From IMG/VR virus record IMGVR_UViG_3300007790_000056, positions 1-36,178 of that record: a DNA stretch of 36,178 bases. One strand, written 5' to 3'. The notes under the pieces were generated by a model. The model saw nothing but the letters and a program-made list of their open reading frames with translations, was not told the DNA's origin and ran no database searches. This DNA is from a virus. Numbering within the stretch: the stretch's first letter is position 1; each line of letters starts with the position of its first letter. Shown here in pieces: positions 6,156 to 29,729 of this stretch. The position numbers were made by a program, and so were the translations under genes.

Positions 6156-6161
6156 TGTATT

Positions 6162-11977: not shown

Positions 11978-11981
11978 TTTT

Positions 11982-12010
11982 GGAAAAGCAAGTTAAAAGA
12001 CTAATAAGTG
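11982..12010 (+). repeat. Late-module box, copy B
   Basis: GGAAAAGCAAGTTAAAAGACTAATAAGTG lies 33 nt upstream of ATG 12043. It is followed by the hairpin GTAGT-aacaaa-ACTAC. Confidence 0.9.
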
Positions 12011-14865: not shown

Positions 14866-14874
14866 GTGGTTCAC

Positions 14875-15420
14875 ATGACGAAACGAGGGGTAAAGCCAAT
14901 GGATATGGTTATTAACTTGATTGTAGGGGCTTTCTTAGGGTCTATCGGTTTCCTTTTTGGCGGTTGGTCTACAATGCTGTCAATGTTAGCGGTTGTACTT
15001 GTAATCGAAGTATTAACAGGTTTAGCAAAAGGGGCTATGAATAAGAATATAGATTCTAAAGTATTCGCTAGGGGAATGGTGAAGAAAGGGTCTATCTTTG
15101 TCGTGATTATCTTGTCACATTTCTTAGACGTATTATTAGGTTTTGATATGGCGTTCATGCTAACAACAATCTTCTACTACATCGGAATCGAAACAGTTTC
15201 AATTTTAGAAAACTTGGCAAAGATGGGTGTCCCCGTTCCTAAGTTTATTCGTGAACGTTTCCAACAACTAGCAGACACAGCAGAAGAACAAGCGGAAATT
15301 ATTGAATCGAATAAACAAGATAATACCAAGAAGAAAGAAGAAGGCAAAGCGGAACAGGGGACGGACGAAAATGAAGCACCTGAAGAAGTAAAAGAGCCTG
15401 AAAAGAAGCAAGACGAATAA
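14875..15420 (+). CDS. Holin (phage_holin_4-like) with possible dual start (ATG 14875 / ATG 14899)
   Basis: Three or more hydrophobic helices (INLIVGAFLGSIGFLFGGW, LSMLAVVLVIEVL, IFVVIILSHFL, IFYYIGIETVSILENL). It lies directly upstream of the endolysin and has a highly charged C-terminal tail. Confidence 0.85.
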   Translation: MTKRGVKPMDMVINLIVGAFLGSIGFLFGGWSTMLSMLAVVLVIEVLTGLAKGAMNKNIDSKVFARGMVKKGSIFVVIILSHFLDVLLGFDMAFMLTTIFYYIGIETVSILENLAKMGVPVPKFIRERFQQLADTAEEQAEIIESNKQDNTKKKEEGKAEQGTDENEAPEEVKEPEKKQDE

Positions 15421-16545: not shown

Positions 16546-16562
16546 AAACTAGACAAAACAAA

Positions 16563-16590
16563 AACGCCCCTGTTATAATAAAAGGGCGTT
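16563..16590. terminator. Convergent terminator between the endolysin gene and the minus-strand small membrane gene
   Basis: AACGCCC-14 nt-GGGCGTT. The U-tract is on the minus-strand side (plus-strand ACAAAACAAAAA at 16551-16562). On the plus side the stem is followed by hairpin H2. Confidence 0.6.
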
Positions 16591-16604
16591 AGCGGAAACT
16601 GACG
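16587..16604 (+). promoter_or_regulatory. CGGAAA-loop hairpin H2
   Basis: CGTTAG-CGGAAA-CTGACG (6 bp, one G-U). Its 5' arm overlaps the 3' arm of the preceding terminator. Confidence 0.55.
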
Positions 16605-16640
16605 TGAGATTACTCATATTCTTTTTCGATTACCACATTT

Positions 16641-16844
16641 CTATTTTCGAGTTGTTTTTGAGCCTTTCTTTTGGAAGGCTCTTTTTCTTTTTATGTGACG
16701 AATCCAATCTTCGCCACAAATACCACAAAACAGTATAGCGATAACAATTAACACACCGTTGCCACCAAAGAAATGACCCACCACACTGAATCCTACAACG
16801 TAAACTACTAGCCAAAATAACGATTTTAACAATGATTTTAACAT
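16641..16844 (-). CDS. Small two-TM membrane protein (holin-like topology), late-cassette driven
   Basis: ATG 16844 is preceded by CAGGGGGAA at 7-nt spacing. The 67-aa product has two hydrophobic helices and a basic C-terminus (RHIKRKRAFQKKGSKTTRK). The track's longer start at 16889 lacks an RBS. Confidence 0.7.
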   Translation of the reverse strand: MLKSLLKSLFWLVVYVVGFSVVGHFFGGNGVLIVIAILFCGICGEDWIRHIKRKRAFQKKGSKTTRK

Positions 16845-16914
16845 ATTAAATTCCCCCTGTTTTTTCTTCTTAATAATAATATAACCCAACCACCGAAACA
16901 GTGTTCAATAGTTA

Positions 16915-16979
16915 GGTAAATTTGTAAACATTTTTACTTGTTAATGTATACCTGTAAACTTGTAAACATTTTTACATAC
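16915..16979 (-). promoter_or_regulatory. Late regulatory cassette, inverted copy (2 x 27-nt units, 11-nt spacer)
   Basis: The reverse complement reads GTAAAAATGTTTACAAGTTTACA-ggtatacatta-ACAAGTAAAAATGTTTACAAATTTACC. This is about 90% identical to 28181-28245. Confidence 0.8.
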
Positions 16980-17339
16980 TTACAACAATTGACGCTCGAT
17001 ACATTCTACATAATACTTCAGGATAGCGTAGCGTACATTGCTATGCACACGAAGCGGTCTTTCCAATACCTGCTGACTGAATAGCCATTCCAAAGTGACG
17101 TAGCTTTCACAACCTTTAGAGCCGTACACCTTGCTTGGGGGTACGTTAAGTAACTTCAGCATATCGTCTAAGTTGTATCTAGGGAAGTTATTTGATACCA
17201 ATGTACGGACTGTCCCTTCACCTATGAATAGCGTTAGAGAATCTTTGTATTCCCCTTCTGATAAGTGAAGCATTTTGTCCACGACCCCTTTCAACTTGGC
17301 TCTTTCTTCTGCTGATAAATCATTGATGAATTCTTCCAT
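16980..17339 (-). CDS. Hypothetical protein (119 aa)
   Basis: ATG 17339 is preceded by AGAAAGAGGG. The track's TTG start at 17369 is unsupported. No family was recognised. Confidence 0.7.
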   Translation of the reverse strand: MEEFINDLSAEERAKLKGVVDKMLHLSEGEYKDSLTLFIGEGTVRTLVSNNFPRYNLDDMLKLLNVPPSKVYGSKGCESYVTLEWLFSQQVLERPLRVHSNVRYAILKYYVECIERQLL

Positions 17340-17363
17340 GTTAAACCCTCTTTCTGATAATTG

Positions 17364-17392
17364 TTGCAATACACAGTATACCTTGATATACT
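17364..17392 (+). promoter_or_regulatory. SigA-type promoter on the + strand inside the minus-strand module
   Basis: TTGCAA (17364-69), a 17-nt spacer, then TATACT (17387-92). Confidence 0.55.
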
Positions 17393-17407
17393 AATTCATG
17401 TGGTGGC

Positions 17408-17423
17408 GGTAGCGGAAACTACC
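17408..17423 (+). promoter_or_regulatory. CGGAAA-loop hairpin H3
   Basis: GGTAG-CGGAAA-CTACC, a perfect 5-bp stem. Confidence 0.5.
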
Positions 17424-17508
17424 AACCCCTCATTTTATGTGTATTAGTTTTGAATAGTTGGTTATGAGTAGTAACAGAACATTGACAACTGAATAGATGT
17501 GCCTAGCA

Positions 17509-17547
17509 AAGAGGACTACCATTGTCGGTGTAGTCCTCTTTTTTTGT
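17509..17547 (+). terminator. Strong intrinsic terminator, + strand oriented
   Basis: AAGAGGACTAC-10 nt-GTAGTCCTCTT is a perfect 11-bp stem followed by TTTTTTTG. On the minus strand the stem has no U-tract. Confidence 0.8.
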
Positions 17548-17552
17548 TGCCC

Positions 17553-17687
17553 TTATTTAAAGAAACGTGTCATTGCCTTACCAACCGCACGATTGTAGAT
17601 ACGTTTACCGACTGTACCATTCTTAACTGCTGATACGTCACCTAAAAACTTAGCAAGACCATATAAGAAACTTCTAAACTTACTCAC
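17553..17687 (-). CDS. Possible small basic protein (44 aa, GTG start)
   Basis: GTG 17687 overlaps the stop of 17680..18357 and is preceded by AAGGGGGG. The product is (M)SKFRSFLYGLAKFLGDVSAVKNGTVGKRIYNRAVGKAMTRFFK. It is below the track's length cutoff. Confidence 0.3.
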   Translation of the reverse strand: MSKFRSFLYGLAKFLGDVSAVKNGTVGKRIYNRAVGKAMTRFFK

Positions 17688-18357
17688 TTACCTTACCCCC
17701 TTTTGGAAATTGCACCACGTTATTAGCCTTTGGTGGCTCGTTTAAGTGGTCAATCATCATTTCCGCTAGACTTTTACCTAAAGTAAATTCAGATAGCTTA
17801 GAAACGATTCTAATGCTTTTGAACATGATGTCATTAATCAATTCACTTCGATACTCTAGCAGGAATTCCCTGAAATATTCCCCGTTCTTCATTTTGTCAT
17901 CATATCCAATGCCAATCTTCGCTAGGTACGCTTCCACCGCTTCCATTGTCGTGTGGTAGTCCTTTGTACAACCCGTCTTGTCAATCCACTTGTCAGGTGG
18001 GAATGTTTGTAGCAGTTGGTTCATGGTCATTTCAGAAAGCATATCAAGCATAAGCGACACGTTGTTGAAGTCCTTTTCAATGTTTTCGTCATTGATTGGG
18101 TTACGGCTTTCTACAAGCACCATACAGCGGATATAGAACATAGACTTTGATTCTATCTTACCACTATAAAAAATGTTAGGTAAAATCGCTTCGCTATTGC
18201 GTGTAATGAAGCCTAACGCACGTTTATATTGTTCATGGCGTTTAACTGCACGTGTACCACGTTCTGCTGTTTCAATGATTGGTAGAACCCCTTCTTTGTA
18301 GTCACGTTTTAAACGCTTGTGAAGCCCTTCTGTGAATGACAGTGTATTGTTTTTCAT
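17680..18357 (-). CDS. Hypothetical early protein (225 aa)
   Basis: The conserved initiation region ATGAAATGAGGAATTCAAA precedes the ATG. No family was recognised. Confidence 0.8.
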   Translation of the reverse strand: MKNNTLSFTEGLHKRLKRDYKEGVLPIIETAERGTRAVKRHEQYKRALGFITRNSEAILPNIFYSGKIESKSMFYIRCMVLVESRNPINDENIEKDFNNVSLMLDMLSEMTMNQLLQTFPPDKWIDKTGCTKDYHTTMEAVEAYLAKIGIGYDDKMKNGEYFREFLLEYRSELINDIMFKSIRIVSKLSEFTLGKSLAEMMIDHLNEPPKANNVVQFPKGGKVSE

Positions 18358-18410
18358 TTTGAATTCCTCATTTCATGTAGTTTGAATGGCGGTCTGATTG
18401 ACCATAATGA
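18358..18410 (-). repeat. Early intergenic repeat, copy 1 (conserved initiation region + GGTCTGATTGACC element)
   Basis: About 90% identical to 19592-19645. It lies directly upstream of ATG 18357. Confidence 0.85.
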
Positions 18411-18474
18411 AGGGGCGTGTGTAGAACCCCTTTAAATGCCTTCTAAGCGATTTTACGGCTTATAGGTTGTCTTG

Positions 18475-19242
18475 CTATTGGAACATTAAATCATAGGTTG
18501 TAGACGTGTAACCATGCTCTTTTAACAGCTTGTACAGGAAGTATTCACCTTTGTTCGTCCACTTCATGCTCTTATACGTGTGACCGTTGTTTGCTTGCCC
18601 TGTAGGTGTAACAGTGTAGCCCTTACCTTCGTACTTGGCGTATAACTTCCAATTCCCGCTACGGTAATATTGGACACCCAACTGATTAAGCAGGCTATTC
18701 ATCTTAATACCTGACATACCGTAGTTGGTAGCAATTTGTGTGATTGTGTACAGCTTGTCAGTGTTCCCTGTAAGAACGTCAAGGGCTTCTGCTTTAGGTG
18801 CAACAATTGCCAATTCCTTCTGTACCGCTTCCTTTTCTTCCACAGCGATTAGAAGGTGCTGTAGGGCTTCTTTGTAAGAAGTAGGTAGTGCAGGCTGTTT
18901 TGGTTGCTGAAGCACTTCTTCCATAGCGTTGAAGCGTTCAATGTACTTAACAGCGAATCCTGTACCGTCAATACCTGTCATTCGATTACCGTATAACTCA
19001 CAACCCTTCTTCGTTAGTAAGAACATTGGGTAGTTTTGATTATTTTGCGGGTGTAAGTAAGTTGATTCTAGGAAATAAGGGGTATGCTCAACATTGAGCA
19101 GACCCAAATCAGCCTTAACCTTTTCAATATCACGCATAACATTTCTATGTTCACGTCCGACCATTTCCGCCACGTCTAGGCTTGTAATCATCGGTTGTTT
19201 GCTTTCTTTTGCTGTAGTGATTGGTGTGTATAATTCTGTCAT
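18475..19242 (-). CDS. Antirepressor-like regulator (Rha N-terminal domain + KilAC/ANT C-terminal domain)
   Basis: The N-terminus ITSLDVAEMVGREHRNVMRDIEK is typical of the Rha family. The C-terminus LYTITQIATNYGMSGIKMNSLLNQLGVQY...W.LYAKY is typical of KilAC. Confidence 0.8.
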   Translation of the reverse strand: MTELYTPITTAKESKQPMITSLDVAEMVGREHRNVMRDIEKVKADLGLLNVEHTPYFLESTYLHPQNNQNYPMFLLTKKGCELYGNRMTGIDGTGFAVKYIERFNAMEEVLQQPKQPALPTSYKEALQHLLIAVEEKEAVQKELAIVAPKAEALDVLTGNTDKLYTITQIATNYGMSGIKMNSLLNQLGVQYYRSGNWKLYAKYEGKGYTVTPTGQANNGHTYKSMKWTNKGEYFLYKLLKEHGYTSTTYDLMFQ

Positions 19243-19276
19243 TATAGATTCCTCATTTCATATAGTTTAGTTTTTG

Positions 19277-19591
19277 TTAGTCCATATTGGCGATAGCTTC
19301 ATGTAACTTCTCGACAAAAGCCTTTTTATCAGCATTTTCGAAAAGATTGATAAAGAGAATTGGCGGTACTAGGTAAGAGCGGTATTCTTCCCCGTTCTCG
19401 TCAGTACAGTTTAGTGTGAACACTGTCTGCTTCTCTTTGTTGTAGTTAAGGGCTTCTTCATACGAAGCAGATTTAAAGCGTAATGTAATACCGTAAGTTG
19501 CTTCTGTTTTTTCGATGTGTTCTTTCATGGCTTTCACTGTTTCCTGCACATAAGTAGTCATAGCCTTTTCAGTTGATACTTTTTTCTTCAT
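19277..19591 (-). CDS. Hypothetical early protein (104 aa)
   Basis: It has the conserved initiation region. It shows weak similarity to the neighbouring 19691..20308 product. Confidence 0.8.
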   Translation of the reverse strand: MKKKVSTEKAMTTYVQETVKAMKEHIEKTEATYGITLRFKSASYEEALNYNKEKQTVFTLNCTDENGEEYRSYLVPPILFINLFENADKKAFVEKLHEAIANMD

Positions 19592-19645
19592 TTTGAATTC
19601 CTCATTTCATATAGTTTTTGAATGGCGGTCAATTGACCATAATAG
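19592..19645 (-). repeat. Early intergenic repeat, copy 2 (conserved initiation region + perfect palindrome GGTCAATTGACC at 19627-38)
   Basis: It lies directly upstream of ATG 19591. Confidence 0.85.
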
Positions 19646-19690
19646 GGGGTGGCTCAAGATTGAGCAGACCCCGCAAAAGGTACTACCTAA

Positions 19691-20308
19691 TTAAAGATAG
19701 TGTTTGATTGTTTGTTCTACTGCATAGCATAGGGCGTGATAACTGATATTCTTTTTAGCAGTTGGTGATAGGTGGTGCGGAATATCAACGTTCATTTCAA
19801 TAGTCACCCCGTCCTTAGTGAAGTCCACGAACAGGCGGTTATCAGGAACGAAATGACTGTAGTAAGGCTTACAACGGAAGTCTTTAGGCTTCAAATTGCT
19901 TGTATGCTCTTTCAACGTAGCTGTAAGCCCACTTACGAGCATTTCATTCGTCTTTCTGATTACATCACTGTAAACTAGCAATTCTTCAGGTAGGTTCGAC
20001 ATCATGAACACGTCCGTTAGTGCCTTGTTAAGTGCAAACATTAGCTTGTCACACGTTTCCTTTGAATCAGCGTGGCGCAAGAAGTAAGTAACAGGGCTAA
20101 GAGTGCCAACGTAGTCATATCCTTCCTCATTCGTGAAAGTGATAGCACATACAACCTTGTCAAAACCATTAATAACCGCTTTAGCTTCTACAAATTCCAT
20201 TTCTTCAACTTTTGAAAGTTCCTTCGTATTCTTAGCGATTAGCTGTGCTTCTTCCACCGCCATAGTTACAGTAGTTTCGATGTGTGATTCAGTTAAAATG
20301 TTTGTCAT
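19691..20308 (-). CDS. Hypothetical early protein (205 aa)
   Basis: ATG 20308 (MTNILTESH) is preceded by GGAGGAA at 7 nt. The track's extension to 20407 crosses a terminator and a promoter. Confidence 0.75.
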   Translation of the reverse strand: MTNILTESHIETTVTMAVEEAQLIAKNTKELSKVEEMEFVEAKAVINGFDKVVCAITFTNEEGYDYVGTLSPVTYFLRHADSKETCDKLMFALNKALTDVFMMSNLPEELLVYSDVIRKTNEMLVSGLTATLKEHTSNLKPKDFRCKPYYSHFVPDNRLFVDFTKDGVTIEMNVDIPHHLSPTAKKNISYHALCYAVEQTIKHYL

Positions 20309-20356
20309 AGTGAATTCCTCCGATAATATAATAGTATTTGTTGACATTACAATGTT

Positions 20357-20386
20357 AAAAAGAAGAAGGGTCAACTTACGACCCTT
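20357..20386 (-). terminator. Promoter-proximal intrinsic terminator in the leader of 19691..20308
   Basis: On the minus strand, AAGGGTC-gtaagtt-GACCCTT (7 bp) is followed by CTTCTTTTTAA. Confidence 0.6.
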
Positions 20387-20441
20387 TAAAATTCCCGCAC
20401 AGACCAATGGCGAGCAAGTAAAGTTATGAGCAATAACCTTA

Positions 20442-20453
20442 CTGTAATTACAT
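20442..20453. promoter_or_regulatory. Operator-like palindrome CTGTAATTACAT, copy 1
   Basis: A perfect 10-bp palindrome, TGTAATTACA, abuts the -10 and covers the predicted start site. Confidence 0.6.
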
Positions 20454-20481
20454 TATAACATACTTTTTAATGCTGTGCGAA
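20452..20481 (-). promoter_or_regulatory. Internal early promoter (extended -10)
   Basis: The minus strand reads TTCGCA-18 nt-TATAAT with TGT immediately upstream of the -10. It is followed by the palindrome TGTAATTACA. Confidence 0.6.
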
Positions 20482-20510
20482 TAATTGTTGACATTACGAG
20501 TAAAAAGGTA

Positions 20511-20861
20511 CTAAAGCCCTATGCGGTTTAAATCTTTCACTGTAGATAGAACACGCATGATATTAGGTAGGTATAGACCATGCTTGGCTAATTTGTGCGC
20601 TAGTTGACCAAGAGTGGCAGGGGTAGCTTCAGGATTAGCCACCGCTTCGTTGATTTCCAATAGGATAGATTGGACTGAATCAAGTGGACGAAAACCTGTA
20701 AACTTAGCACCACGTCCCTGAAGTTCATAGAAGCACTCTAGGCAAGACTTGGCGAATTTTGCGTGAATAGGGTTATCCATATTGATAACGTCCCCTAATT
20801 GGTCTAATTCGTTGCTGAAATAGGTTGTTAAGATGTGTGATTCTTGTTCTGTTAGTTTCAT
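20511..20861 (-). CDS. Hypothetical early protein (116 aa)
   Basis: ORF with a 4-nt start/stop overlap with the upstream gene. No family was recognised. Confidence 0.8.
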   Translation of the reverse strand: MKLTEQESHILTTYFSNELDQLGDVINMDNPIHAKFAKSCLECFYELQGRGAKFTGFRPLDSVQSILLEINEAVANPEATPATLGQLAHKLAKHGLYLPNIMRVLSTVKDLNRIGL

Positions 20862-21322
20862 TGCTCTTGTCCTCCTTTTAGATATGTGCCTGACAGCTTG
20901 TAGTAGCCTTCCTTAGCCACCCAAGATATAAAGTAGTTGTTCACTTCTACATCACCCGTAGGAAGCACCCTAGCCCCTATCATGGTGTTTAAATCAGCCC
21001 CGTAGTCGTCAGCCACCGCTTCAAGGATAGCAAACAAGTGTTCTGATACCACTAAACATGGCTCATATTCGAAGCGGTCTACAGAAGCTACATCTAATTC
21101 TTCTTCTACTGATTCACATACTTCAGCGAATATTGCACGTCTGAATGTAGGGTCACTTTCTGCGGGTACAGCCTGAATGCTTTCAAGCTGTTCTGTAAGC
21201 TGTTCACGTTCCTTAGAAAGCGTCATAGCTTCCTCATTGGATAAACCACCTTCAAAGAGAAGGTAGTCTTGTAACTGTGCTGTGATGTGGTTGATACGGT
21301 TTTGAATGTTAGTTGCTGTCAT
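20858..21322 (-). CDS. Hypothetical acidic early protein (154 aa)
   Basis: ATG 21322 gives 8-nt spacing from AAGGGGGAA. ATG 21328 is too close to that RBS. Confidence 0.75.
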   Translation of the reverse strand: MTATNIQNRINHITAQLQDYLLFEGGLSNEEAMTLSKEREQLTEQLESIQAVPAESDPTFRRAIFAEVCESVEEELDVASVDRFEYEPCLVVSEHLFAILEAVADDYGADLNTMIGARVLPTGDVEVNNYFISWVAKEGYYKLSGTYLKGGQEQ

Positions 21323-21335
21323 TGTCATTTCCCCC

Positions 21336-21800
21336 TTATACTAAAGCCTTTAGCATGAATTTAAGTTGTGCTAAGCGTGTCTTGTAATCGCCTTTGCGGT
21401 TTTCCACTGTTTCGCAGTAGATAATTTCCCCGTCCTCTAGGATTGTTACTGTGATGTCATGCCCTTCAGCTACTTCAAAGTCTGTAGCAGTCACTTCTAA
21501 TTCTAATGACCCTTCAGCACCCTTAACAGCTAACTTAACTTCTTTCTTCAGTTGGGCAACTGTTACGAATACTTCTACGGGTTTCTTCTCATGTAGTGTA
21601 TAGTCGTTGTGACCGCTTGTTTTGATTACGTCTAGTAATTCTTCACGTGTCATGTAAGACCAATCATAAGTTTGAACGATACGTCCTTCGATTACTTTTT
21701 CAGCGATAATTGTTTCACCGTCAATATATACGTTGTGGAATACGTTGTTATCACCGTTAGATTTAATTACTGTAGTTACTGTTTCGAATGCTTGTTTCAT
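21336..21800 (-). CDS. Hypothetical early protein (154 aa), first gene of the leftward operon
   Basis: It has the conserved initiation region AGAAATGAGGAATTCAAA-ATG and lies downstream of the leftward promoter. Confidence 0.8.
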   Translation of the reverse strand: MKQAFETVTTVIKSNGDNNVFHNVYIDGETIIAEKVIEGRIVQTYDWSYMTREELLDVIKTSGHNDYTLHEKKPVEVFVTVAQLKKEVKLAVKGAEGSLELEVTATDFEVAEGHDITVTILEDGEIIYCETVENRKGDYKTRLAQLKFMLKALV

Positions 21801-21834
21801 TTTGAATTCCTCATTTCTATTAGTTGTTTTATTA

Positions 21835-21846
21835 CTGTAATTACAT
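21835..21846. promoter_or_regulatory. Operator-like palindrome CTGTAATTACAT, copy 2
   Basis: It has the same position relative to the leftward promoter as copy 1 has to its promoter. Confidence 0.6.
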
Positions 21847-21873
21847 CTTAACCCCTTATTAATGTAATGTCAA
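21845..21873 (-). promoter_or_regulatory. Leftward early promoter
   Basis: The minus strand reads TTGACA (plus 21868-73), a 17-nt spacer, then TAAGAT (plus 21845-50). Confidence 0.7.
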
Positions 21874-22627
21874 CTGTTATTATTAAATTAATTAAATTAG
21901 TTTTATTTGATAGTCCAATTATGGTCTTTAGGTAGTCCCTTCTATTCCTTTGTTATTAAGTGGAACAGGTGTATTAAGTGGTGGAATCTCTATTAGTAAG
22001 GCTCTATAAACCCCTATGTAAAAGCCTTTGTGTAGTATCTGATTAAGGTTATACATATATAGGGTGTATATGAAGTGTCTTGTATATAGTAGTTATCTAT
22101 TCAGTCTAGTGTGTAAGAAGTGGGTCAATCCCTTGTGGCTCTAAGGCTGAAGCCTGTTTCAAAGCTAGTCGGTATGGCATTACACAATGTGTTATATCAT
22201 TGTTATATAGCCGTACCGAGTAACTTTAATACCTTGTAAACCCTTATGTATCAAGGGTTTGAAGGCTATTTAAGTAAAAGACTGAATAGGTTTTAATAGA
22301 GATTACAAGAAAGGTTATAAAAGAGGTTATATAGATACTAATAGATAGATTATATTAATAGATATACTGAATGGTCATAGGAATATAATTGTCCTTCCCT
22401 CTTGGTTATATATAGTAATAAGAGATATATAGTAAAAAGTGATTCAATAACTGTAGTTGTCTTATATTATAGATAAGTGGGAAAAAGTAGCCTAGTTAGC
22501 ACGTTATTAGTAAGAGGGTATTTTATTAATAGCAGAATGGGAAAAAGTAGACTTCAACTGACGATAAAGGTAAGAGATATGTTTAAAGACTATTCAAAGG
22601 GGCTATATACTACATTGAGAACAAGTT
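21874..22627. other. ~750-bp ORF-free, AT-rich, repeat-dense region between divergent early promoters (candidate replication origin)
   Basis: TGGGAAAAAGTAG occurs twice (22478-90, 22538-50). TATTAAGTGG occurs twice (about 21953 and 21971). TAAACCC(C/T)TATGTA occurs twice. TAAGAGATAT-type and TAGATA reiterations are present. There are nested inverted repeats, TCGGTATGGC/GCCGTACCGA at 22169-22220. The region is adjacent to the initiator gene. Confidence 0.4.
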
Positions 22628-22657
22628 TTGACATTACATTAAATAATGTGTTATAAT
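22628..22657 (+). promoter_or_regulatory. Rightward early promoter (consensus -35, extended consensus -10)
   Basis: TTGACA (22628-33), an 18-nt spacer ending in TGT, then TATAAT (22652-57). Confidence 0.8.
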
Positions 22658-22667
22658 GTAATTACAG
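22656..22667. promoter_or_regulatory. Operator-like palindrome ATGTAATTACAG, copy 3
   Basis: TGTAATTACA abuts the -10 of the rightward promoter. Confidence 0.6.
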
Positions 22668-22692
22668 ATAACAAAGAAAGAGGGAATCGGAA

Positions 22693-24558
22693 ATGAGTAA
22701 TCAAACAGTGGCAATTCACATTGACGGTGTAAGGCACAGCATTAAGCCTAAGACCAACCTAAGCAAAAAGACTTCACGTGTCCAAGAGGTGACACCCGAA
22801 CAATTCAAGAATGTACTGACTAATGGTATGACGGTATGCCTAGCAGAATTCACTACAGCATATCCTTGGGCTTCAGAAGCGGAATTCGTACAACAACAAT
22901 ACTTCATGTTAGACTTCGATAACTACGAGGTTATAGACAAGGAGAAGGTACGATTCACAGATAGCCGTTACCTAAGTTTTGAAGAAGCTAAGAACAACCG
23001 CTTCCTGCAAGAGAACGCTATCTTTATGTATAAGACGTTTTCAGACGCAGAAGGACATGACCGCTTTCGTGTAGCTTTCAAGTTGGATAAGCCTATGACA
23101 GAAGTAGTTGAAGCCTTAAAGGTGAACATGGCACTTCTAAAGCACTTCCCCAACGCAGACGCAAACTGTAAAGATATTAAGCGTATTTCATTCGGTGGTA
23201 AGAGCGAACATCACATATTCGATTATAACAACGTCCTGAAACACGCTTCATTGGACACAGAACAGCTTGAATTGAATCAGAAGCAAGTAGCAAGCAATTC
23301 ATTCGAAAACAGCGCAGAACTAACGACAAACAGCGATACACACGAAATCGTGTCGATGATTGCTAATGGTGAGATTACAGAACTACAGGAAAAGCTAAAC
23401 ATTGAAGGCGTTGTCTACCCTTCAGTGTACGTGGTGAAAGCACAGTTGAAGAAGATTAATCTTGCTGAAGTATTCAATGTTCCGCTTGGTATTAACTTCT
23501 GTGACATATTCCATGAAGAAAGCAACCCTTCAGCACGTATTTACAAGAATGACAATGGCGAATACGTTTACACGTGTTTCTCCGCTTCGAATAAATATGC
23601 AGGGGACATTATCAGTGTTATCCAACGTATTAGAGATTGCCAATACCATGAAGCGATTGAGTTTCTAATGTGTATGTTCGACATCACTATTAAGGTGAAC
23701 GAGGACGTACAACGTATTCACAACCAACTAGACTTGGTTATCGGCTTGTTAGAGGACGTGAACACGCTTAAAAAGGAATATCCTGACGTACACAAGGTAT
23801 TCATTAACCCTAAGAACCGTTCTTATTGCAGACAGATTCTACAACTATTCAGAAATCATACATTTATCGACTACAAGACAGGCGAACAGCAGGTAGCTAT
23901 CACAATGTCAGTGGACACGATTATGTATATGCTTAGTTGCAACAGCAGACAGACAATTAATGACGCTTTAATCAAACTTCGTACAATCGGCTTGATTAAG
24001 TCACTAGACGATACAGAAGTACCACAGCACGTATTAGTTAAAATGCGTGATAGCCAACTGAAACGTAATATTGACGTTGGACGCTTCACCAACCGAACAA
24101 ATATGCACTCATGCAGTATTCAAAACAATATGCTTGGTGTCATTTCTAAAGGGTGCGGTGAATATCGTGAAAAACGTATCACAATCGCTACAATGAGTAA
24201 TAAAGGTATTGGCTTGGCGTTAGGTGAGGAAAAGAGAAAAGAAACATTCGTACATGACCAAAACAAGCAAGCTGTATCACCGAAAGTGCAGAAACAAGTT
24301 GATTCATTGATTAAATACGCTGATAAGTTTATCGAAAAGAAAGGCTACGCTTGTGACGCAGATTTAATTAACAAATTCAATCAGGGCTTTAAGCTAGGGT
24401 CTAAAGCGAAAGCTAAACGTATCTACGATGAACTACGAAGCGGAATGATTGCACAAGGTAATTTTAAAGCCATTCAAAATAACAAGGAGAATCGCCAAGA
24501 ACATAACATACAAGAACGTATGCAAGGCGGTCATTTCTATATCAAAGGAGAGAAATAA
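22693..24558 (+). CDS. Replication initiator / primase-like protein (AEP-like N-terminus + degenerate CHC2 zinc-finger-like segment)
   Basis: FMLDFDN is a DxD-type motif, and GHDRFRVAFKL is also present. CDIFHEESNPSARIY...YTCFS resembles the DnaG CHC2 finger (CPFHxEKTPSF...YxCFGCG) with the last Cys pair lost. At 621 aa it is the only obvious replication enzyme. Confidence 0.6.
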   Translation: MSNQTVAIHIDGVRHSIKPKTNLSKKTSRVQEVTPEQFKNVLTNGMTVCLAEFTTAYPWASEAEFVQQQYFMLDFDNYEVIDKEKVRFTDSRYLSFEEAKNNRFLQENAIFMYKTFSDAEGHDRFRVAFKLDKPMTEVVEALKVNMALLKHFPNADANCKDIKRISFGGKSEHHIFDYNNVLKHASLDTEQLELNQKQVASNSFENSAELTTNSDTHEIVSMIANGEITELQEKLNIEGVVYPSVYVVKAQLKKINLAEVFNVPLGINFCDIFHEESNPSARIYKNDNGEYVYTCFSASNKYAGDIISVIQRIRDCQYHEAIEFLMCMFDITIKVNEDVQRIHNQLDLVIGLLEDVNTLKKEYPDVHKVFINPKNRSYCRQILQLFRNHTFIDYKTGEQQVAITMSVDTIMYMLSCNSRQTINDALIKLRTIGLIKSLDDTEVPQHVLVKMRDSQLKRNIDVGRFTNRTNMHSCSIQNNMLGVISKGCGEYREKRITIATMSNKGIGLALGEEKRKETFVHDQNKQAVSPKVQKQVDSLIKYADKFIEKKGYACDADLINKFNQGFKLGSKAKAKRIYDELRSGMIAQGNFKAIQNNKENRQEHNIQERMQGGHFYIKGEK

Positions 24559-24559
24559 T

Positions 24560-24901
24560 ATGTATTTATCAAAACTAAACAAAAAAGACGTATTCTTCAA
24601 AATGGAGAACATCAAAAAAGAGGAATTCTATCTTATTTCAGCCTATAACGAAGTGACCGAAAAGGTAGTGAAGGTTTACGGTATGACGGGTGAAGAAGTG
24701 CAGGAATTGCTATTGGACGCTGAAGATTCTGAATTACTGATTGACTGCTTAAGACAATACAATCCTGACGTGTACTTGGTGGTGTTCGACATATTCAAGG
24801 ACGATGAAACATTCTATAGCTTCACCAATGGCGACATTGACCACTTCTTCGGTATCATCAACGGCTATAATGAGTTGATTGACAAGGAAAAAGTAATGTG
24901 A
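24560..24901 (+). CDS. Hypothetical acidic protein (113 aa)
   Basis: ATG 24560 follows AAAGGAGAG and the primase stop. The track's start at 24449 overlaps the primase gene without an RBS. Confidence 0.75.
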   Translation: MYLSKLNKKDVFFKMENIKKEEFYLISAYNEVTEKVVKVYGMTGEEVQELLLDAEDSELLIDCLRQYNPDVYLVVFDIFKDDETFYSFTNGDIDHFFGIINGYNELIDKEKVM

Positions 24902-24908
24902 TAAGTAA

Positions 24909-24938
24909 TTCGCACAAATGGTCAAAATATGTTATAAT
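24909..24938 (+). promoter_or_regulatory. Middle promoter, paralogous to the one at 20452-20481
   Basis: TTCGCACA-N-TATGTTATAAT: -35 TTCGCA, an 18-nt spacer, extended -10. Confidence 0.55.
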
Positions 24939-24965
24939 AAGGTATAAAGATTTTAGTGGTAATAG

Positions 24966-25000
24966 AGATAGGCTCAATCTTGGGCTTATCTATTATTTTT
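24966..25000 (+). terminator. Promoter-proximal terminator-like hairpin
   Basis: AGATAGGC-10 nt-GCTTATCT (8 bp, one G-U) followed by ATTATTTTT. It lies about 20 nt downstream of the predicted start site. Confidence 0.5.
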
Positions 25001-25043
25001 AAAATAGTAATGTTAAACGTTGTAATTATAGGAGGAATAAAAA

Positions 25044-25316
25044 ATGTACATTTCAGTTAGGAAAAGAAAGAACCGCTTCGGTGAATTAGGTTTAACGCTT
25101 GGTCTTGCGGAAACGTTTAGAGAAAACGGAGAAATCAAGAATAGAGCGGTCTACGTTGGGACGATTATTGCAGAAGATTTAGTAGCAGGAGAAACACGTA
25201 AACTAGACCGCCAAGTGAAAATGCGCTTAAATGAAGAACAACAGGCTATCTTTTATAGTAAGTTGCCTGATGTAGTAAGCCGTTTCAAATATCTTAAAGA
25301 GAAAGCGGGTGAATAG
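25044..25316 (+). CDS. Hypothetical protein (90 aa)
   Basis: RBS TAGGAGGAA precedes the ATG. No family was recognised. Confidence 0.8.
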   Translation: MYISVRKRKNRFGELGLTLGLAETFRENGEIKNRAVYVGTIIAEDLVAGETRKLDRQVKMRLNEEQQAIFYSKLPDVVSRFKYLKEKAGE

Positions 25317-25317
25317 C

Positions 25318-25524
25318 ATGATGTTTGAAGGTAGCACGAAAGGCATTTCAACAGTAGATAAAATAGAGCAGTCGTACAAGTCGTATTACACAGGACGTGG
25401 TAGCGTCACAATCCAATTAAACCGCACCTTTAAGCAGGAGATTGAAATGCAGAACCGATTATCGTACTTCAGACGTACAGTTGGTAATGAAGCTAGACGC
25501 AGGTTATTAAGATTACTGAATTAG
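25318..25524 (+). CDS. Hypothetical basic protein (68 aa)
   Basis: ATG 25318 lies just after the upstream stop. The alternative is GTG 25309. Confidence 0.6.
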   Translation: MMFEGSTKGISTVDKIEQSYKSYYTGRGSVTIQLNRTFKQEIEMQNRLSYFRRTVGNEARRRLLRLLN

Positions 25525-25541
25525 GAAAGGGTGTAGCAAGA

Positions 25542-25712
25542 ATGTTTTATATTCCATTAGCTATATGTTTAATGCTTATTGTAGTGCTTATTTGTATCAA
25601 GGTAATTGTTGAATCAGATTTTACGACAGTTAAGACGGTCAAGATTCTTATTTTAACCACCGTAGCGATTGCTATATTAATCGCCTGCTTAACACACTAT
25701 AGCCTGCACTAA
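25542..25712 (+). CDS. Small two-TM membrane protein (56 aa), below the track cutoff
   Basis: ATG 25542 follows GGAAAGGGTG. The product is MFYIPLAICLMLIVVLICIKVIVESDFTTVKTVKILILTTVAIAILIACLTHYSLH. A terminator follows. Confidence 0.5.
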   Translation: MFYIPLAICLMLIVVLICIKVIVESDFTTVKTVKILILTTVAIAILIACLTHYSLH

Positions 25713-25723
25713 TATTTAAACAG

Positions 25724-25746
25724 CCCCTTTCAGAGGGGTTTTAGTG
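25724..25746 (+). terminator. Intrinsic terminator
   Basis: CCCCT-ttcag-AGGGG followed by TTTTAGTG. Confidence 0.65.
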
Positions 25747-25771
25747 CGTTTAAGGAAAGGATTGAAGGAGA

Positions 25772-26230
25772 ATGACAAAGGTATTAGCTATTGACCAATC
25801 GTTACTATCAAGCGGTTGGGCGGTGCTTACAGAACACGAATTGATTGATAGAGGGAAAATCAAGTCAGGTTATAAAGAGGACTTCAGGAACATACAGAAG
25901 CAGTTAGAAGCCCTTGTAGACGTTTACGAAGCACATAAGCCTGACGTGGTTATCTTAGAGCAAACAACGTACCAACGAAACGCAGACACCTTTAGAAAGC
26001 TATCAAAGCTATTAGGGGTCATTGAATTATTCTTCTATCAGCAGGGTGTACCGACAGTGATTTATTACCCTAGCACTTGGAGAAGTAAAGTGAAGATTAA
26101 AGGAAAGAAACGAGCCGAGCAGAAGTTAGAAGCTAAGAAGCGGGTTCGTGAAGATTATCAGATTAACGCTTCAGAAGATGAATCAGAAGCAATTCTACTA
26201 GGACTAGCCTACTTAGAAACCAACCAATAG
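25772..26230 (+). CDS. RuvC-like Holliday junction resolvase
   Basis: The N-terminus KVLAIDQSLLSSGWAV carries a catalytic Asp. VILEQT carries a Glu, and there is a C-terminal acidic ASEDESEA segment. At 152 aa it matches the phage RuvC-like resolvases of low-GC Gram-positive phages. Confidence 0.8.
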   Translation: MTKVLAIDQSLLSSGWAVLTEHELIDRGKIKSGYKEDFRNIQKQLEALVDVYEAHKPDVVILEQTTYQRNADTFRKLSKLLGVIELFFYQQGVPTVIYYPSTWRSKVKIKGKKRAEQKLEAKKRVREDYQINASEDESEAILLGLAYLETNQ

Positions 26231-26245
26231 AAAGGAAAATGCAAA

Positions 26246-26809
26246 ATGAATACACATGAAATCGTTAAATTAAATACAATCGAGGGTCTATCACACCTGA
26301 AGGATTATTACCACATATCGAACACAGGAAAGATTTATTCAACGTACCGCCAACCTGAAGGGGAACTAAAAGAGATTGCCCCGTATTTAGTAGGTGCGGG
26401 TTATCAGCAGGTGCAATTAGGAACGAAGCAGGGTGGTTTTAAGAAGCTATACGTCCACCGCTTAGTTGGCATGGTCTTTGTCGAAGGATATGCAGAAGGA
26501 TTAGTCATTAATCACAAGGACGAAAACAAGCTGAATAATCATTACCTGAATCTTGAATGGGTGACGCAAAAGGAAAATATAAACTACGGCACACGTACAA
26601 AACGACAAAGCAAGTCATGTCAGAAGCCATTAGAAGCGATTGACCCACTGACGGGTATTACGTGCCTAGTATTTGAATCAGTAAGAGAAGCAATGGACAA
26701 GGGCTTTTCAGCTAATGGCATTTCAGAAGCGTCTAGGGGTGAATGGTGCAGTCATTTAAAACATGGTGGCACAGACGTATATCGTGGCTACAAATGGCGT
26801 TACGTTTAG
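26246..26809 (+). CDS. Free-standing HNH homing endonuclease (NUMOD4-like N-terminus, HNH_3 core, C-terminal DNA-binding repeat)
   Basis: Motifs are YYHISNTGKIYS, VHRLVGMVF...INHKDENKLNNHYLNLEWVTQKEN, and C-terminal FESVREA...GISEASRG...YRGYKWRY. Confidence 0.85.
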   Translation: MNTHEIVKLNTIEGLSHLKDYYHISNTGKIYSTYRQPEGELKEIAPYLVGAGYQQVQLGTKQGGFKKLYVHRLVGMVFVEGYAEGLVINHKDENKLNNHYLNLEWVTQKENINYGTRTKRQSKSCQKPLEAIDPLTGITCLVFESVREAMDKGFSANGISEASRGEWCSHLKHGGTDVYRGYKWRYV

Positions 26810-26906
26810 TTGGGGGCAACCCCTGACATACATAAGATAAGTTAGCTTATATTATTAGTAAGAGATATATCATAACCAATAGAGAAAAAGAAAAGGGGAA
26901 TTGTAA

Positions 26907-27569
26907 ATGAATGAAGAATACACGTTAGAGGGTTTAGAAGCTATGCTATTGAACTACCACAAGTTAGAGGGGAACGATTACAAGATTGAAGTAGACCGCT
27001 TCTTAGCAAGCGATTTAATCACATATGACATGGCAATTTATATCAGTATGCACTATGCGCTAGAATTAACAGACTTACAGATTGTTCGACTATTAGGTGA
27101 AGGTTATTCGCTCTTGGATATGAAAGAAGCAAGAGAAGAAGTCCTAGAGTGCCTAGAAGCCTTTCTAAGAGGTTTCAAGACGAAGAAGGTAAAATACTAT
27201 AAAGAATTCAATGCACCTGATATAGAGGGTCATTTAAAGCTATTGAAAGCGGGTGTCATTAGTCCAATGTATATCAGTTTCAGTGTAACAAAGGAAGTGA
27301 ATGAACGACTTGCCCAAATGGGTGATGATAACTCTAAGGTGCTTATCGAACAGGAAGCAGGCTATTTCAGACCGAACCTATCTGAAGAAAACTATTGGGA
27401 CGAGAAACCGCTTCGAATTTACAAGACAAATGACTTCGGTCATAAGACAGCAGAAAACGATGAATTCTATAAGCGTGACATGGCGAATAGGGTTACACCT
27501 ACCTATGACGTGGACGTGACCATGTATAATGCAGGACTAGCGAAAAAGGACAGACGAAAGGGGAAATAA
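26907..27569 (+). CDS. Hypothetical protein; possible sigma-region-4/ArpU-like HTH (weak)
   Basis: ISMHYALELTDLQIVRLLGEGYSLLDMKEAREEVLECL loosely fits a sigma r4-type helix-turn-helix pattern. It lies two genes upstream of the late operon. Confidence 0.3.
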   Translation: MNEEYTLEGLEAMLLNYHKLEGNDYKIEVDRFLASDLITYDMAIYISMHYALELTDLQIVRLLGEGYSLLDMKEAREEVLECLEAFLRGFKTKKVKYYKEFNAPDIEGHLKLLKAGVISPMYISFSVTKEVNERLAQMGDDNSKVLIEQEAGYFRPNLSEENYWDEKPLRIYKTNDFGHKTAENDEFYKRDMANRVTPTYDVDVTMYNAGLAKKDRRKGK

Positions 27570-27572
27570 AGC

Positions 27573-28043
27573 ATGGGTATTATTAGAGCATTTGACGAAC
27601 TACCATACGAAGAAGAAGTAAGATTGTATCAGGAACTACAGGACGACTTGCTGAATATCTTTGGCAATGATTCCTATAGTGATGTGGAAGCCCTTAGAGG
27701 TGACTTCCAAGCCCTTATGCTTGACCCTTATTATTCGTACCTGCTTGATAACTATGTACTTAATAACAGGGAATATTATATAGATGTCAATGAGTTATTC
27801 AAGTCTATTACACCGAACCGTTGGAAAGTATGCAAAGTCTGTGGGAAACCATTCTTAGATTACACCACATACAATAAGTCTAAGATATGCTACAGCGCTA
27901 TCTATAAACGATACAGCTTACGCAAGGGGGAATTCTTTACTTCAGCAGGTGAGAAATCAGAATGTTATATGAAGTACAAGAGCAAAGGGTGGCATAAATA
28001 CAATTCGGAAAAGCAAGTTGAAAGACTAATAAGTGAAGGGTAG
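27573..28043 (+). CDS. Hypothetical Cys-containing (CxxC) protein; candidate late regulator by position
   Basis: It contains WKVCKVCGKPF ... C ... C. It is the last gene before the late cassette. Its last 12 codons are encoded by box C. Confidence 0.3.
   Translation: MGIIRAFDELPYEEEVRLYQELQDDLLNIFGNDSYSDVEALRGDFQALMLDPYYSYLLDNYVLNNREYYIDVNELFKSITPNRWKVCKVCGKPFLDYTTYNKSKICYSAIYKRYSLRKGEFFTSAGEKSECYMKYKSKGWHKYNSEKQVERLISEG
28003..28036 (+). repeat. Late-module box, copy C (34 nt identical to copy D)
   Basis: ATTCGGAAAAGCAAGTTGAAAGACTAATAAGTGA encodes NSEKQVERLISE at the C-terminus of 27573..28043. Confidence 0.95.
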
Positions 28044-28062
28044 CGGAAACTGCCTTTCACTT
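28031..28062 (+). promoter_or_regulatory. CGGAAA-loop hairpin H4 (13-bp stem)
   Basis: AAGTGAAGGGTAG-CGGAAA-CTGCCTTTCACTT (2 G-U pairs). It includes the stop codon of 27573..28043 and the 3' end of box C. Confidence 0.7.
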
Positions 28063-28105
28063 CTTTCTGTGATGATTACTCATTGCGGGATTCCTCCTTA
28101 TGTAT

Positions 28106-28173
28106 GGGCGGTAGGATTAACAAGTGATTGGCTATGAAACGCAAATGCCCAAACACTAGCCTATCGCCCTTTT
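28106..28173 (+). terminator. Long imperfect stem-loop terminator closing the middle operon
   Basis: The base stem is GGGCGGTAGG / CCTATCGCCC (one G-U). The inner stem is AGTGATTGG / CCAAACACT. It is followed by TTTTATTA. Confidence 0.6.
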
Positions 28174-28180
28174 ATTATAT

Positions 28181-28245
28181 ACAAGTAAAAATGTTTACAA
28201 GATTACAGATATACATTAACAAGTAAAAATGTTTACAAGATTACA
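28181..28245 (+). promoter_or_regulatory. Late regulatory cassette: perfect 27-nt tandem direct repeat with 11-nt spacer
   Basis: ACAAGTAAAAATGTTTACAAGATTACA occurs at 28181-28207 and 28219-28245. Each unit holds the inverted repeat GTAAA-N4-TTTAC. The cassette ends 15 nt before ATG 28261. A possible weak promoter is TTTACA-17-TAACAA. Confidence 0.8.
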
Positions 28246-28260: not shown

Positions 28261-28617
28261 ATGGGATATATTATATGCGCCAATACATTATGCAGACAGC
28301 GTATTAAAGATACAGAGCGGTTCTGTCCTAAGCACAGGGGCGAATCAGATAAGCAGTACAATAAAGACGTGCGGTTCAATAAGGACAATATACAGTATGC
28401 TAGGTTCTATGCTTCCACCGCATGGCGAGAAGTACGGGCGATTAAGTTGTCAATACAGCCTATGTGTGAAGTATGCCTAGAAGCGGGACGGCTAACAGAA
28501 GCAAAGCTAGTCCACCATATCGTAGAGGTAAGGGACGACTACAGCAGACGATTGGACATGGATAACCTACAGTCTATTTGTCAGGCTTGCCATAACGCAC
28601 ACCATAAGAAACAGTAG
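28261..28617 (+). CDS. HNH endonuclease (terminase-associated, packaging type)
   Basis: It carries C...CPKH near the N-terminus and CEVC...HHI...D...NLQSICQACHNAHH. At 118 aa it lies just upstream of cos/TerS, as in HK97-like cos phages. Confidence 0.9.
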   Translation: MGYIICANTLCRQRIKDTERFCPKHRGESDKQYNKDVRFNKDNIQYARFYASTAWREVRAIKLSIQPMCEVCLEAGRLTEAKLVHHIVEVRDDYSRRLDMDNLQSICQACHNAHHKKQ

Positions 28618-29255: not shown

Positions 29256-29729
29256 ATGGCAAGACCACGTAAATTGTTAGGCACTATGAATAAGAACTTG
29301 ACAAAAGAAGAAATTGAAAAGCGAGAAGAACAGGAATCACGCCTGTATGAATTCGAACACTTGGACATGGACGATGTACCGCAGTTTTTACACAGTGATG
29401 AACGAGCGGTAATAGAGTGGCGCAGGATTATACCACTTATGAGTGAACTACCTATCAGTGAATTGGATAGACAGACTATGGCGCAGTATTGTAAATATGT
29501 TTCAGTGTATGAACAAGCAAGCGAAGGATTAATTGAACAGGGTATCTTGACCGAAGAAGGAAAAGAAAACCCACTATTCAATGTCATGGTCAAGGCTTCC
29601 AAAGAACTGAAGTCAATCACTTCAGCAATGGGTCTAAACATCAACAGTCGAATGAAAATCGTAACGCCTGAAACTGCGGAAGATGATACAGACCCGTTTG
29701 AAAAAATGTACAAGGAAAAGGACAACTAA
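29256..29729 (+). CDS. terS: Terminase small subunit (P27-family-like)
   Basis: 157-aa ORF directly upstream of TerL. Sequence MARPRKLLGT...IEWRRIIPLMSEL...MAQYCKYVSVYEQA is typical of the P27/Terminase_4 type. Confidence 0.85.
   Translation: MARPRKLLGTMNKNLTKEEIEKREEQESRLYEFEHLDMDDVPQFLHSDERAVIEWRRIIPLMSELPISELDRQTMAQYCKYVSVYEQASEGLIEQGILTEEGKENPLFNVMVKASKELKSITSAMGLNINSRMKIVTPETAEDDTDPFEKMYKEKDN

Follow-up and report, generated by a model that had tools for sequence, protein, structure and literature searches.

An inverted pair of dyad-bearing cassettes at the early/late borders of a soil phage genome: a candidate factor-controlled promoter module

The genome of a phage from a soil metagenome (IMG/VR record IMGVR_UViG_3300007790_000056; ENA ERZ924408 / SRR3712211) carries a 65-nt cassette twice, in inverted orientation, at the two borders between its early and its late genes. 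The window analysed here is the whole record of 36,178 nucleotides. Copy B stands on the plus strand directly before the HNH endonuclease gene that opens the late operon, and copy A stands on the minus strand before a single small gene for a 67-amino-acid (aa) protein with two transmembrane (TM) segments. Judged by sequence comparison across three lineages, the cassette is a real, selected, non-coding control element under strong purifying selection. We further consider it probable, by a modest degree, that the cassette is a phage-specific promoter/operator module under the control of a dedicated factor, which would couple the late operon to the small gene.

RESULTS

A 65-nt cassette with four identical cores

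The features discussed are collected in Table 1. The two 27-mers of cassette B, ACAAGTAAAAATGTTTACAAGATTACA, are identical and lie 38 bp apart from start to start, so that the perfect tandem repeat described in an earlier reading of the letters alone (the original prediction) is found as stated. The inverted copy, put there at ~90% identity, is likewise present, the 65-nt copies being ~91% identical overall, with the two cores and their spacing 100% identical. The opposing arms (16916-16988 and 28172-28244) show a complementarity of 86% over 73 nt and of 96% over 54 nt, and the A/B pair is the top self-BLAST match of the whole genome (E=1e-19). The 16-nt core, GTAAAAATGTTTACAA, occurs at exactly the four genome sites that had been claimed, each with the dyad GTAAA-N4-TTTAC, and at up to three mismatches the genome contains no further site except the core's own reverse-strand reading. 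The dyad itself is observed four times against 0.07 expected from dinucleotide shuffles, and none of 100 shuffles reaches four. Each unit has the structure GTAAA-AATG-TTTAC-AA-NN-TTAC, i.e. an inverted pair of half-sites and a third, direct TTAC half-site, and the dyad centres within each cassette are 38 bp apart. The cassette RNA is not predicted to fold strongly, and action at the RNA level was rejected on this ground.

Outside the window, the core 16-mer is found in at least 118 stretches of IMG/VR, and each of the 80 listed contains a single match, which is chance level and uninformative. The two-core pattern has no match in viral or genome contigs. Its sole metagenome match, contig L125 (Ga0209628_10238006), was set aside as an unrelated Bacteroidetes-like contig with only a 14-mer in common; there, two GTAAAAATGTTTAC copies lie at 872-927, 42 nt from start to start, upstream of a 267-aa open reading frame (ORF), and probably represent chance or an analogous operator. 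The GTAAACCTGTTAC motifs in phage C30-2 and one site after gp40 in phage Deep-Purple resemble the dyad, and homology of these sites was discounted as they are too short and AT-rich. To our knowledge, none of the boxes of the host regulators LexA, CodY, ComK, WalR, PhoP and Spo0A fits the dyad.

Conservation of the cassette in three lineages

Three fairly close lineages were compared from public contigs. Lineage 1 is the window; lineage 2 (the relative; SRR24204752, contigs L121, L123, L129 and L130) has ~88-90% nucleotide identity; and lineage 3, from two ENA assemblies (contigs L126/L128, L134/L135 and L137), has 90-95% identity. All 14 readable cores are identical across the three lineages (A1, A2, B1 and B2 of the window and of the relative, A1 and A2 of L134, B1 and B2 of L126, B1 of L137 and B2 of L127). 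Cassette B is identical in L126/L128, its unit 1 is identical in L121, and L137 shows a single change in the tail (GATTACA to GCTTACA). The variable sites are confined to a free position in the unit tail (AAG[A/T/C]TTACA), two spacer positions, and the head and tail that distinguish A from B. The synonymous-site differences of the flanking genes between window and relative are 0.24-0.60, and the probability of zero changes in 64 core sites at a proportion of synonymous differences (pS) of at least 0.24 is, by our arithmetic, ~2e-8. In agreement with such constraint, cassette A is 95.4% identical to that of the relative, and the genes on its two sides are 67% and 76% identical. The orthologues of copy A carry a GTAT head and a AATTTACC tail, and those of copy B an ACAA head and a AGATTACA tail. 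As these A- and B-specific differences are common to the lineages, the duplication must have preceded the divergence of the lineages, and we attribute the identical cores to selection, not to recency or ongoing conversion.

One contig of lineage 3, L134 (ENA ERZ28564204 scaffold_5058), is a mosaic: its late genes are nearest to those of the window (95%), and in its small gene and leader it matches the more distant relative almost exactly. Such mosaicism indicates recombination near the early/late border.

Placement and polarity of the two copies

The window is a circular assembly of ~36.09 kb, bases 1-91 recurring at 36088-36178. The late operon runs on the plus strand from the HNH gene round the circle to the end of the endolysin gene (Amidase_3/LysM) at 16545; the portal, protease, capsid and tail genes follow TerL within it. 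The early genes occupy 11.2 kb, from 16980 to 28180, as one leftward and one rightward operon. Both cassettes are oriented alike toward their downstream gene, and hence point outward from the early region at both early/late borders, and each is at the same time located at the 3′ end of one of the early operons. Cassette B ends 15 nt before the HNH ATG, as had been noted, and only 3 nt before the HNH ribosome-binding site, so that any start site dedicated to HNH would have to be located in or before the cassette. An orphan gene of 119 aa ends with its stop codon right at the start of cassette A; past the cassette come first a 14-bp hairpin, then the 67-aa gene, preceded by a ribosome-binding site, and last a minus-strand terminator. 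The original prediction called the cassette late; copy B indeed precedes the HNH/terminase operon, and the label derives from that position only.

Promoter-like sequences within the cassette

Both copies in the window carry the weak promoter proposed earlier, TTTACA-17-TAACAA; it is without the key T at −7, and its −10 reads CAACAA in cassette A of the relative. The accompanying statement that the cassette holds no good sigma-A promoter is accurate, the best matches being 8-9 of 12 positions of the consensus (TTGACA and TATAAT at a distance of 16-18 nt, with A2 and T6 in the −10). One of these, in cassette A, was returned by the promoter scan (9 of 12; in L123 and L134 it reads ATTACA-17-AAAAAT), and the candidate in cassette B (8 of 12) was read by analogy with it. 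The pattern (A/T/C)TTACA-17-AAAAAT is kept in all five cassettes with both hexamers readable (window A and B, relative A, L134 A and L126 B). For cassette B, both hexamers are kept in L126 and L128, and in L137 only the −35 (CTTACA) is readable, the contig ending in the spacer. In this arrangement, the tail of unit 1 supplies the −35 (nTTACA), the −10 (AAAAAT) lies within the unit-2 dyad, and the dyads are centred near −45 and −7. By the same analogy, transcription from cassette B would start near 28237. Over the scanned region, sigma-A-like matches are no commoner than in shuffles (34 versus 36.9). Inward-facing promoters that would give antisense RNA to the early genes were also sought and rejected, as the sole good −10 (TATAAT, 28180-28175) is TATAAC in the relative and cassette A has none.

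The original prediction took the dyad for the site of a dimeric activator. The dyad is real, and its position over −10/+1 suits a repressor equally. Since one dyad overlaps the core promoter in either promoter reading, the sequence is compatible with activation and repression alike and cannot separate the two.

The small gene downstream of cassette A

The 67-aa two-TM ORF converging on the endolysin gene exists as described, and we regard it, on comparative sequence grounds, as a real, conserved gene for a predicted membrane protein. It is the sole gene downstream of cassette A, and its ratio of nonsynonymous to synonymous divergence (dN/dS) relative to its orthologue is 0.29. The hydropathy profile shows segments at ~5-24 and 28-44 with a GGNG turn between them, and the tail, RHIKRKRAFQKKGSKTTRK, contains nine basic residues; the two-TM topology and the basic tail are kept in the orthologues. 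The protein thus has the topology of a class II holin (small, two TM segments, charged C-terminal tail). It has no Pfam, PHROG or NCBIfam match at E<=0.01, and up to E=10 only non-holin noise, so that it falls in no holin family recognised by these collections; it has no homologue among GenBank phages, none beyond its own lineage among 5.8 billion proteins, and no sequence similarity to HolP30 or HolP33 of Deep-Purple. Of the holin-like character claimed earlier, the topology therefore stands and family membership does not; the gene is moreover a separate convergent unit, and a canonical holin (Phage_holin_4_1) is encoded in the late operon. A holin-like role is a reasonable guess from topology and location.

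The leader hairpin between cassette A and the gene is kept in the relatives with one G-U/A-U change and probably acts as a 5′ stabiliser or else as a weak attenuator. At the 3′ end, the small gene has an intrinsic terminator of its own, and its final 16 codons enclose a terminator-like hairpin for the late transcript. The segment 16622-16691 is 100% identical in the relative, synonymous sites included. The whole convergent terminator region of the endolysin and small genes (16546-16691) is 95-100% identical to the relative, and the body of the small gene 67%. At their 3′ ends, the two convergent mRNAs have a predicted overlap of ~130 nt, which resembles the arrangement in type I toxin-antitoxin pairs.

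Candidate binding proteins

Scans of every early ORF returned no integrase, repressor, sigma factor or late-activator family, and a Rha/KilAC anti-repressor-like protein is the genome's sole match to a known regulator family. The original prediction had named the 220-aa and 156-aa products as binders; neither matches a regulator family, and the 119-aa gene that ends at cassette A had been overlooked. The 220-, 156- and 119-aa proteins and their orthologues have no match to the RinA, ArpU, LtrC or Alt families up to E=10 in Pfam, NCBIfam and PHROG, and none of the three proteins can be called as a regulator on present evidence.

The 119-aa orphan, a candidate DNA-binding factor, contains a weak HTH_17-like stretch that is below threshold (E=0.15 in an orthologue). 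It has no homologue among GenBank phages, and its single-sequence AlphaFold2 (AF2) model, at a predicted local distance difference test score (pLDDT) of 45, is unusable. The 220-aa family (21 representatives) has a conserved N-terminal helical domain and gives a confident AF2 model from 21 sequences (pLDDT 83), which has no significant match in PDB or BFVD except the Deep-Purple homologue. Hints of sigma region 4 in this family (FliA, E=0.4; Sigma70_r4, E=0.0016 in one of 23 members) are below threshold, and we do not class the protein as a sigma factor. Four Cys are invariant in the 156-aa family; the matches of its profile were rejected as zinc-ribbon noise from ribosomal protein S14. The 220/156-aa pair, which ends the rightward early operon, is also found in Deep-Purple, C30-2 and metagenomic relatives. 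It is conserved across otherwise different Bacillus-type phages (L119, L120, L131 and L132), and in Deep-Purple-like genomes it is not beside the late operon.

Weighing activation against other roles

From the features described above we infer a promoter role for the cassette, as well as where transcription would start, which way control would work, that its timing would be late and which protein might bind. In the account that we favour, a dimeric, probably phage-encoded candidate factor would bind the dyads and set a joint firing time for two units. Copy B would drive the ~24-kb HNH-terminase-head-tail-lysis operon, and copy A the monocistronic 67-aa gene, heading toward the end of the lysis genes. 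The two dyads of each cassette would bracket a weak sigma-A-like promoter, and a factor from the early region, bound at the upstream dyad (~−45), would recruit RNA polymerase to a promoter that is poor by itself. We lean modestly toward such positive control by analogy, on account of the weak promoter and of the repeats that lie distal to the regulator gene in the RinA/LtrC/ArpU systems (PMC3753634).

Five points weigh against this account. A second, better sigma-A-like match, TGAACA-18-TATATT (16907-16878), lies on the downstream side at cassette A and has no counterpart at B. The unit-2 dyad covers −10/+1 under both promoter readings, which is the usual place of a repressor. Apart from the Rha/KilAC anti-repressor-like protein, no protein of the genome belongs to a known regulator family. 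The conservation was seen in three fairly close lineages only and could partly reflect a non-transcriptional function. Finally, a second conserved motif, GCAA-N11-AATRWGT, may, from its sequence and placement, be a phage-specific late promoter and as such the real late signal.

Repression is an unlikely but substantial rival. The dyads would then be operators at which an early phage or host protein blocks −10/+1 of a weak but intrinsically active promoter, and would thereby keep the late operon and the 67-aa gene silent, until it is titrated or inactivated. The candidate −10 AAAAAT indeed lies inside the unit-2 dyad (28223-28236; 16924-16937), and under the promoter of the original prediction unit 1 covers −35 and unit 2 covers +1. 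Co-operating operator pairs 38 bp apart are typical of repressors. The database scans yielded no activator family, which favours this view, but they yielded no repressor family either; the intrinsic promoter is poor, its −10 matching four of six positions with no TG extension, and the Gram-positive siphophage late operons studied so far are under positive control (PMC3753634).

Rather unlikely, too, is that GCAA-N11-AATRWGT is the late promoter, read by a phage-modified polymerase, and that the cassette belongs to another class, e.g. a middle promoter, roadblock or insulator. The full motif, GGAAAAGCAAGTTRAAAGACTAAT, has four copies, all on the plus strand, three in the late operon and one just before it. 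Those at 6161 and 11981 directly follow terminator-like hairpins and precede genes starting at 6234 and ~12043; that at 32770 falls within the 3′-terminal part of the portal gene, ahead of the protease gene; and that at 28006 falls within the 3′-terminal part of the 156-aa gene, with 170 nt between it and cassette B further downstream. In Deep-Purple, analogues precede terS, the gene for the major head protein and a tail gene. The pattern [AG]GCAA-N11-AAT[AG][AT]GT, in its shared form followed by GG, has three matches in each of the two genomes against 0.05-0.1 expected. The window and Deep-Purple have only a primase-like gene and the 220/156-aa pair in common, their late regions being otherwise unrelated. 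The motif may mark a phage-specific promoter class tied to that pair. The location of both cassettes exactly at the 3′ ends of early operons would also suit an element of another class. On the other side, three hairpins, one of them with a T-run, intervene between the motif at 28013 and HNH; the same pattern is absent from C30-2, although C30-2 has the 220/156-aa pair; and the motif could act at the RNA level, or both elements could act late. If the motif is the late promoter, the cassette would be of a different regulatory class or an extra gate at the head of the operon.

The factor-controlled module that we favour can be extended to a form that we consider improbable, in which a family-less phage factor (the 119-aa orphan or the 220/156-aa pair) has the cassettes as its only targets and runs a two-promoter late switch. 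The 67-aa protein would then be a new lysis-timing or exclusion factor, and the mRNA overlap could give mutual antisense control as in the type I toxin-antitoxin pairs of Bacillus prophages.

Quite improbable is that cassette B is a packaging element, with TerS sites of the cosB/pac type, and cassette A a second terminase site or a relic. The HNH, Terminase_4 and TerL genes point to cos-type packaging. Cos sites usually lie just upstream of terminase genes, and tandem repeats beside cos are commonly read as terminase sites. Moreover, relatives' contigs from several assemblies break in or beside cassette B, L121 and L137 ending and L126/L128, L127 and L130 starting there. However, a cosB site would be a single locus, whereas here two equally conserved loci lie 11.2 kb apart, the second in a promoter-proximal position to an unrelated gene with matching polarity. 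The assemblers that break at cassette B run through cassette A, and the breaks are explained by the repeat and by variation among strains instead of by an end of the genome. A physical end (cos) at 28169/28170, suggested by the starts of L126 and L128, was rejected as L137, from the same sample, spans it.

Recombination substrates for inversion or exchange of the early region, with no role in transcription, would account for inverted repeats of 54-73 nt that flank exactly the early module and for the window-like and relative-like mosaic of L134, but this reading has next to no credit, as no integrase, invertase or resolvase domain was detected among the early ORFs, the orientation is unchanged in the relative, the A- and B-specific differences persist across lineages, against frequent exchange, and selection is focused on the dyads instead of evenly spread.

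Surrounding features and relationships

The structured region between the 156-aa gene and cassette B contains two leader hairpins and a long hairpin with a T-run, which is probably the terminator of the rightward early operon. A strong antisense ribosome-binding site with a ATGAGTAAT mini-ORF of 8-14 codons occurs on the minus strand at 28065-28100, within the second leader hairpin before cassette B, and at 16600-16620. It resembles the start of the 621-aa gene at 22677-22703 and is kept in the relative; it may be a recombination relic or merely part of the hairpin.

The early operons are served by three near-consensus sigma-A promoters (10 to 12 of 12 matches), each directly followed by a palindrome, TGTAATTACA, that is unlike the cassette dyad; also given as TGTAATTACAG, it probably serves early transcription as an operator or as a conserved start region. 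A near-identical leader of 25-55 nt with its ribosome-binding region is common to five leftward early genes. Between the divergent early promoters, an AT-rich, ORF-free stretch of ~700-800 bp (21900-22620) contains many short TATATA-type repeats and may be a replication origin or encode a non-coding RNA.

A megablast of 15.7 kb against GenBank phages gave no match, and IMG/VR contains no close relatives of the 156-aa, 220-aa or TerL proteins. The nearest GenBank phages have few proteins in common with the window; the 220/156-aa pair is common to Deep-Purple and C30-2, and the primase-like gene occurs also in Deep-Purple. Rfam gave zero matches at gathering score over the whole window.

Table 1. 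Coordinates of the cassettes and of other features, in the window unless a contig or phage is named
Feature	Position	Strand	Details
Cassette B	28181..28245	+	unit B1 28181-28207, spacer 28208-28218, unit B2 28219-28245
Cassette B dyads	28185-28198; 28223-28236	+	GTAAAAATGTTTAC
Cassette A, inverted copy	16915..16979	-	unit A1 16979-16953, unit A2 16941-16915
Cassette A dyads	16962-16975; 16924-16937	-	
Cassette A orthologues	L123 11152-11216; L134 ~5495-5560		cores identical, only spacer/tail positions differ
Candidate promoter, cassette B	28202..28230	+	-35 ATTACA 28202-28207, 17 nt, -10 AAAAAT 28225-28230; 8 of 12
Candidate promoter, cassette A	16930..16958	-	TTTACA-17-AAAAAT; 9 of 12
Leader hairpin, 14 bp	16884..16917	-	-16.2 kcal/mol
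67-aa protein gene	16641..16844	-	GGGGGA ribosome-binding site
66-aa orthologues	L123 11287-11487; L134 5631-5831		
Small-gene intrinsic terminator	16555..16600	-	stem ACGCCC..GGGCGT, then UUUUU
Terminator-like hairpin and T-run, late transcript	16660..16691	+	within small gene
119-aa orphan gene	16980..17339	-	candidate DNA-binding factor
220-aa gene	26907..27569	+	ends rightward early operon with 156-aa gene
156-aa gene	27573..28043	+	
Structured region	28031..28180	+	z=-5.05; -26 kcal/mol; 90.6% identical to relative
Leader hairpins	28031-28062; 28065-28090	+	
Long hairpin	28106-28115 / 28160-28169	+	GGGCGGTAGG / CCTATCGCCC, then T-run TTTTATTATAT
HNH endonuclease gene	28261..28617	+	first gene of late operon
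TerS	29256-29729	+	late operon
TerL	29732-31471	+	late operon
Phage_holin_4_1 holin	14866..15420	+	canonical holin, late operon
Early promoters	20442-20489; 21824-21890; 22620-22678		TTGACA/TTCGCA, 17-18 nt, TATAAT/TAAGAT
Shared early leaders	18353-18408; 19239-19268; 19587-19643; 20305-20330; 21796-21851		reverse complement TATATGAAATGAGGAATTCAAAATGA
GCAA motif copies	6161-6190; 11981-12010; 28006-28035; 32770-32799	+	cores 6168, 11988, 28013, 32777
Deep-Purple (L119) analogues of the motif	6823-6859; 14483-14519; 17571-17607		before terS, major head gene and tail gene

DISCUSSION

If correct, the favoured account would describe a compact early-to-late switch in a phage lineage without a recognisable regulator, add a further kind of late control beside the four activator families of Gram-positive phages, and assign a role to a small membrane protein that is restricted to this lineage. 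The cassette is, in addition, a portable candidate for a phage-inducible promoter in Bacillus-like hosts. The general understanding of phage regulation would be unchanged.

The closest known counterparts are the RinA, LtrC, ArpU and Alt systems, in which the activator binds, ahead of terS, to short repeats that lie immediately beyond its own gene (PMC3753634). As in the present genome, the repeats of these systems stand between the end of the early/replication module and the terminase genes, beside a terminator, the promoter is poor without its factor, and the late operon spans packaging and lysis genes (PMC3753634, PMC3152322). In those systems, the sites upstream of the promoter are made up of either three direct repeats of 7 nt or four imperfect ones, whereas the cassette consists of two 27-nt dyad-bearing units that overlap the candidate promoter and abut the ribosome-binding site; a second, inverted copy before a separate gene is not described for them. 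At the two borders, cassette A follows the 119-aa stop codon and cassette B lies 137 nt past the 156-aa gene, beyond the hairpins, both genes being candidates for a regulator.

A small dimer that binds several spaced inverted repeats is also known from the Bacillus phage phi29, where p4, depending on position, activates late and represses early promoters. Its sites are CTTTTT-N15-AAAATG, and the AAAATG of this half-site also occurs in the core. In contrast to phi29, the genome has no p4 homologue, the dyad is GTAAA-N4-TTTAC, both targets point outward from the early region, and a different palindrome accompanies the early promoters. One dyad before several late units that are fired together is characteristic of P2 Ogr and Mu C. 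These act in Gram-negative hosts, with the dyad near −55 or over −35 and once per promoter, and Ogr is a zinc protein with four Cys. The repetition of a dyad element before several units and the four invariant Cys of the 156-aa family recall Ogr, although no homology to Ogr or Mu C was detected.

For the small gene, the two-holin lysis module of Deep-Purple offers a parallel, as siphophages of the Bacillus cereus group can need two holin-like proteins (PMC9327680). The 67-aa protein resembles class II holins and that module in its small size, its two TM segments and its strongly basic C-terminus, and in having its gene beside that of the endolysin; it differs in being encoded on the other strand, between a promoter region and a terminator of its own, in a genome that already has a Phage_holin_4_1 holin. 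That one factor-binding element may couple late units is, as a principle, well known in phages. New in the present case are the sequence, the lack of a known regulator family, the design of a dyad within a direct repeat, and the mirror placement of the element at both early/late borders.

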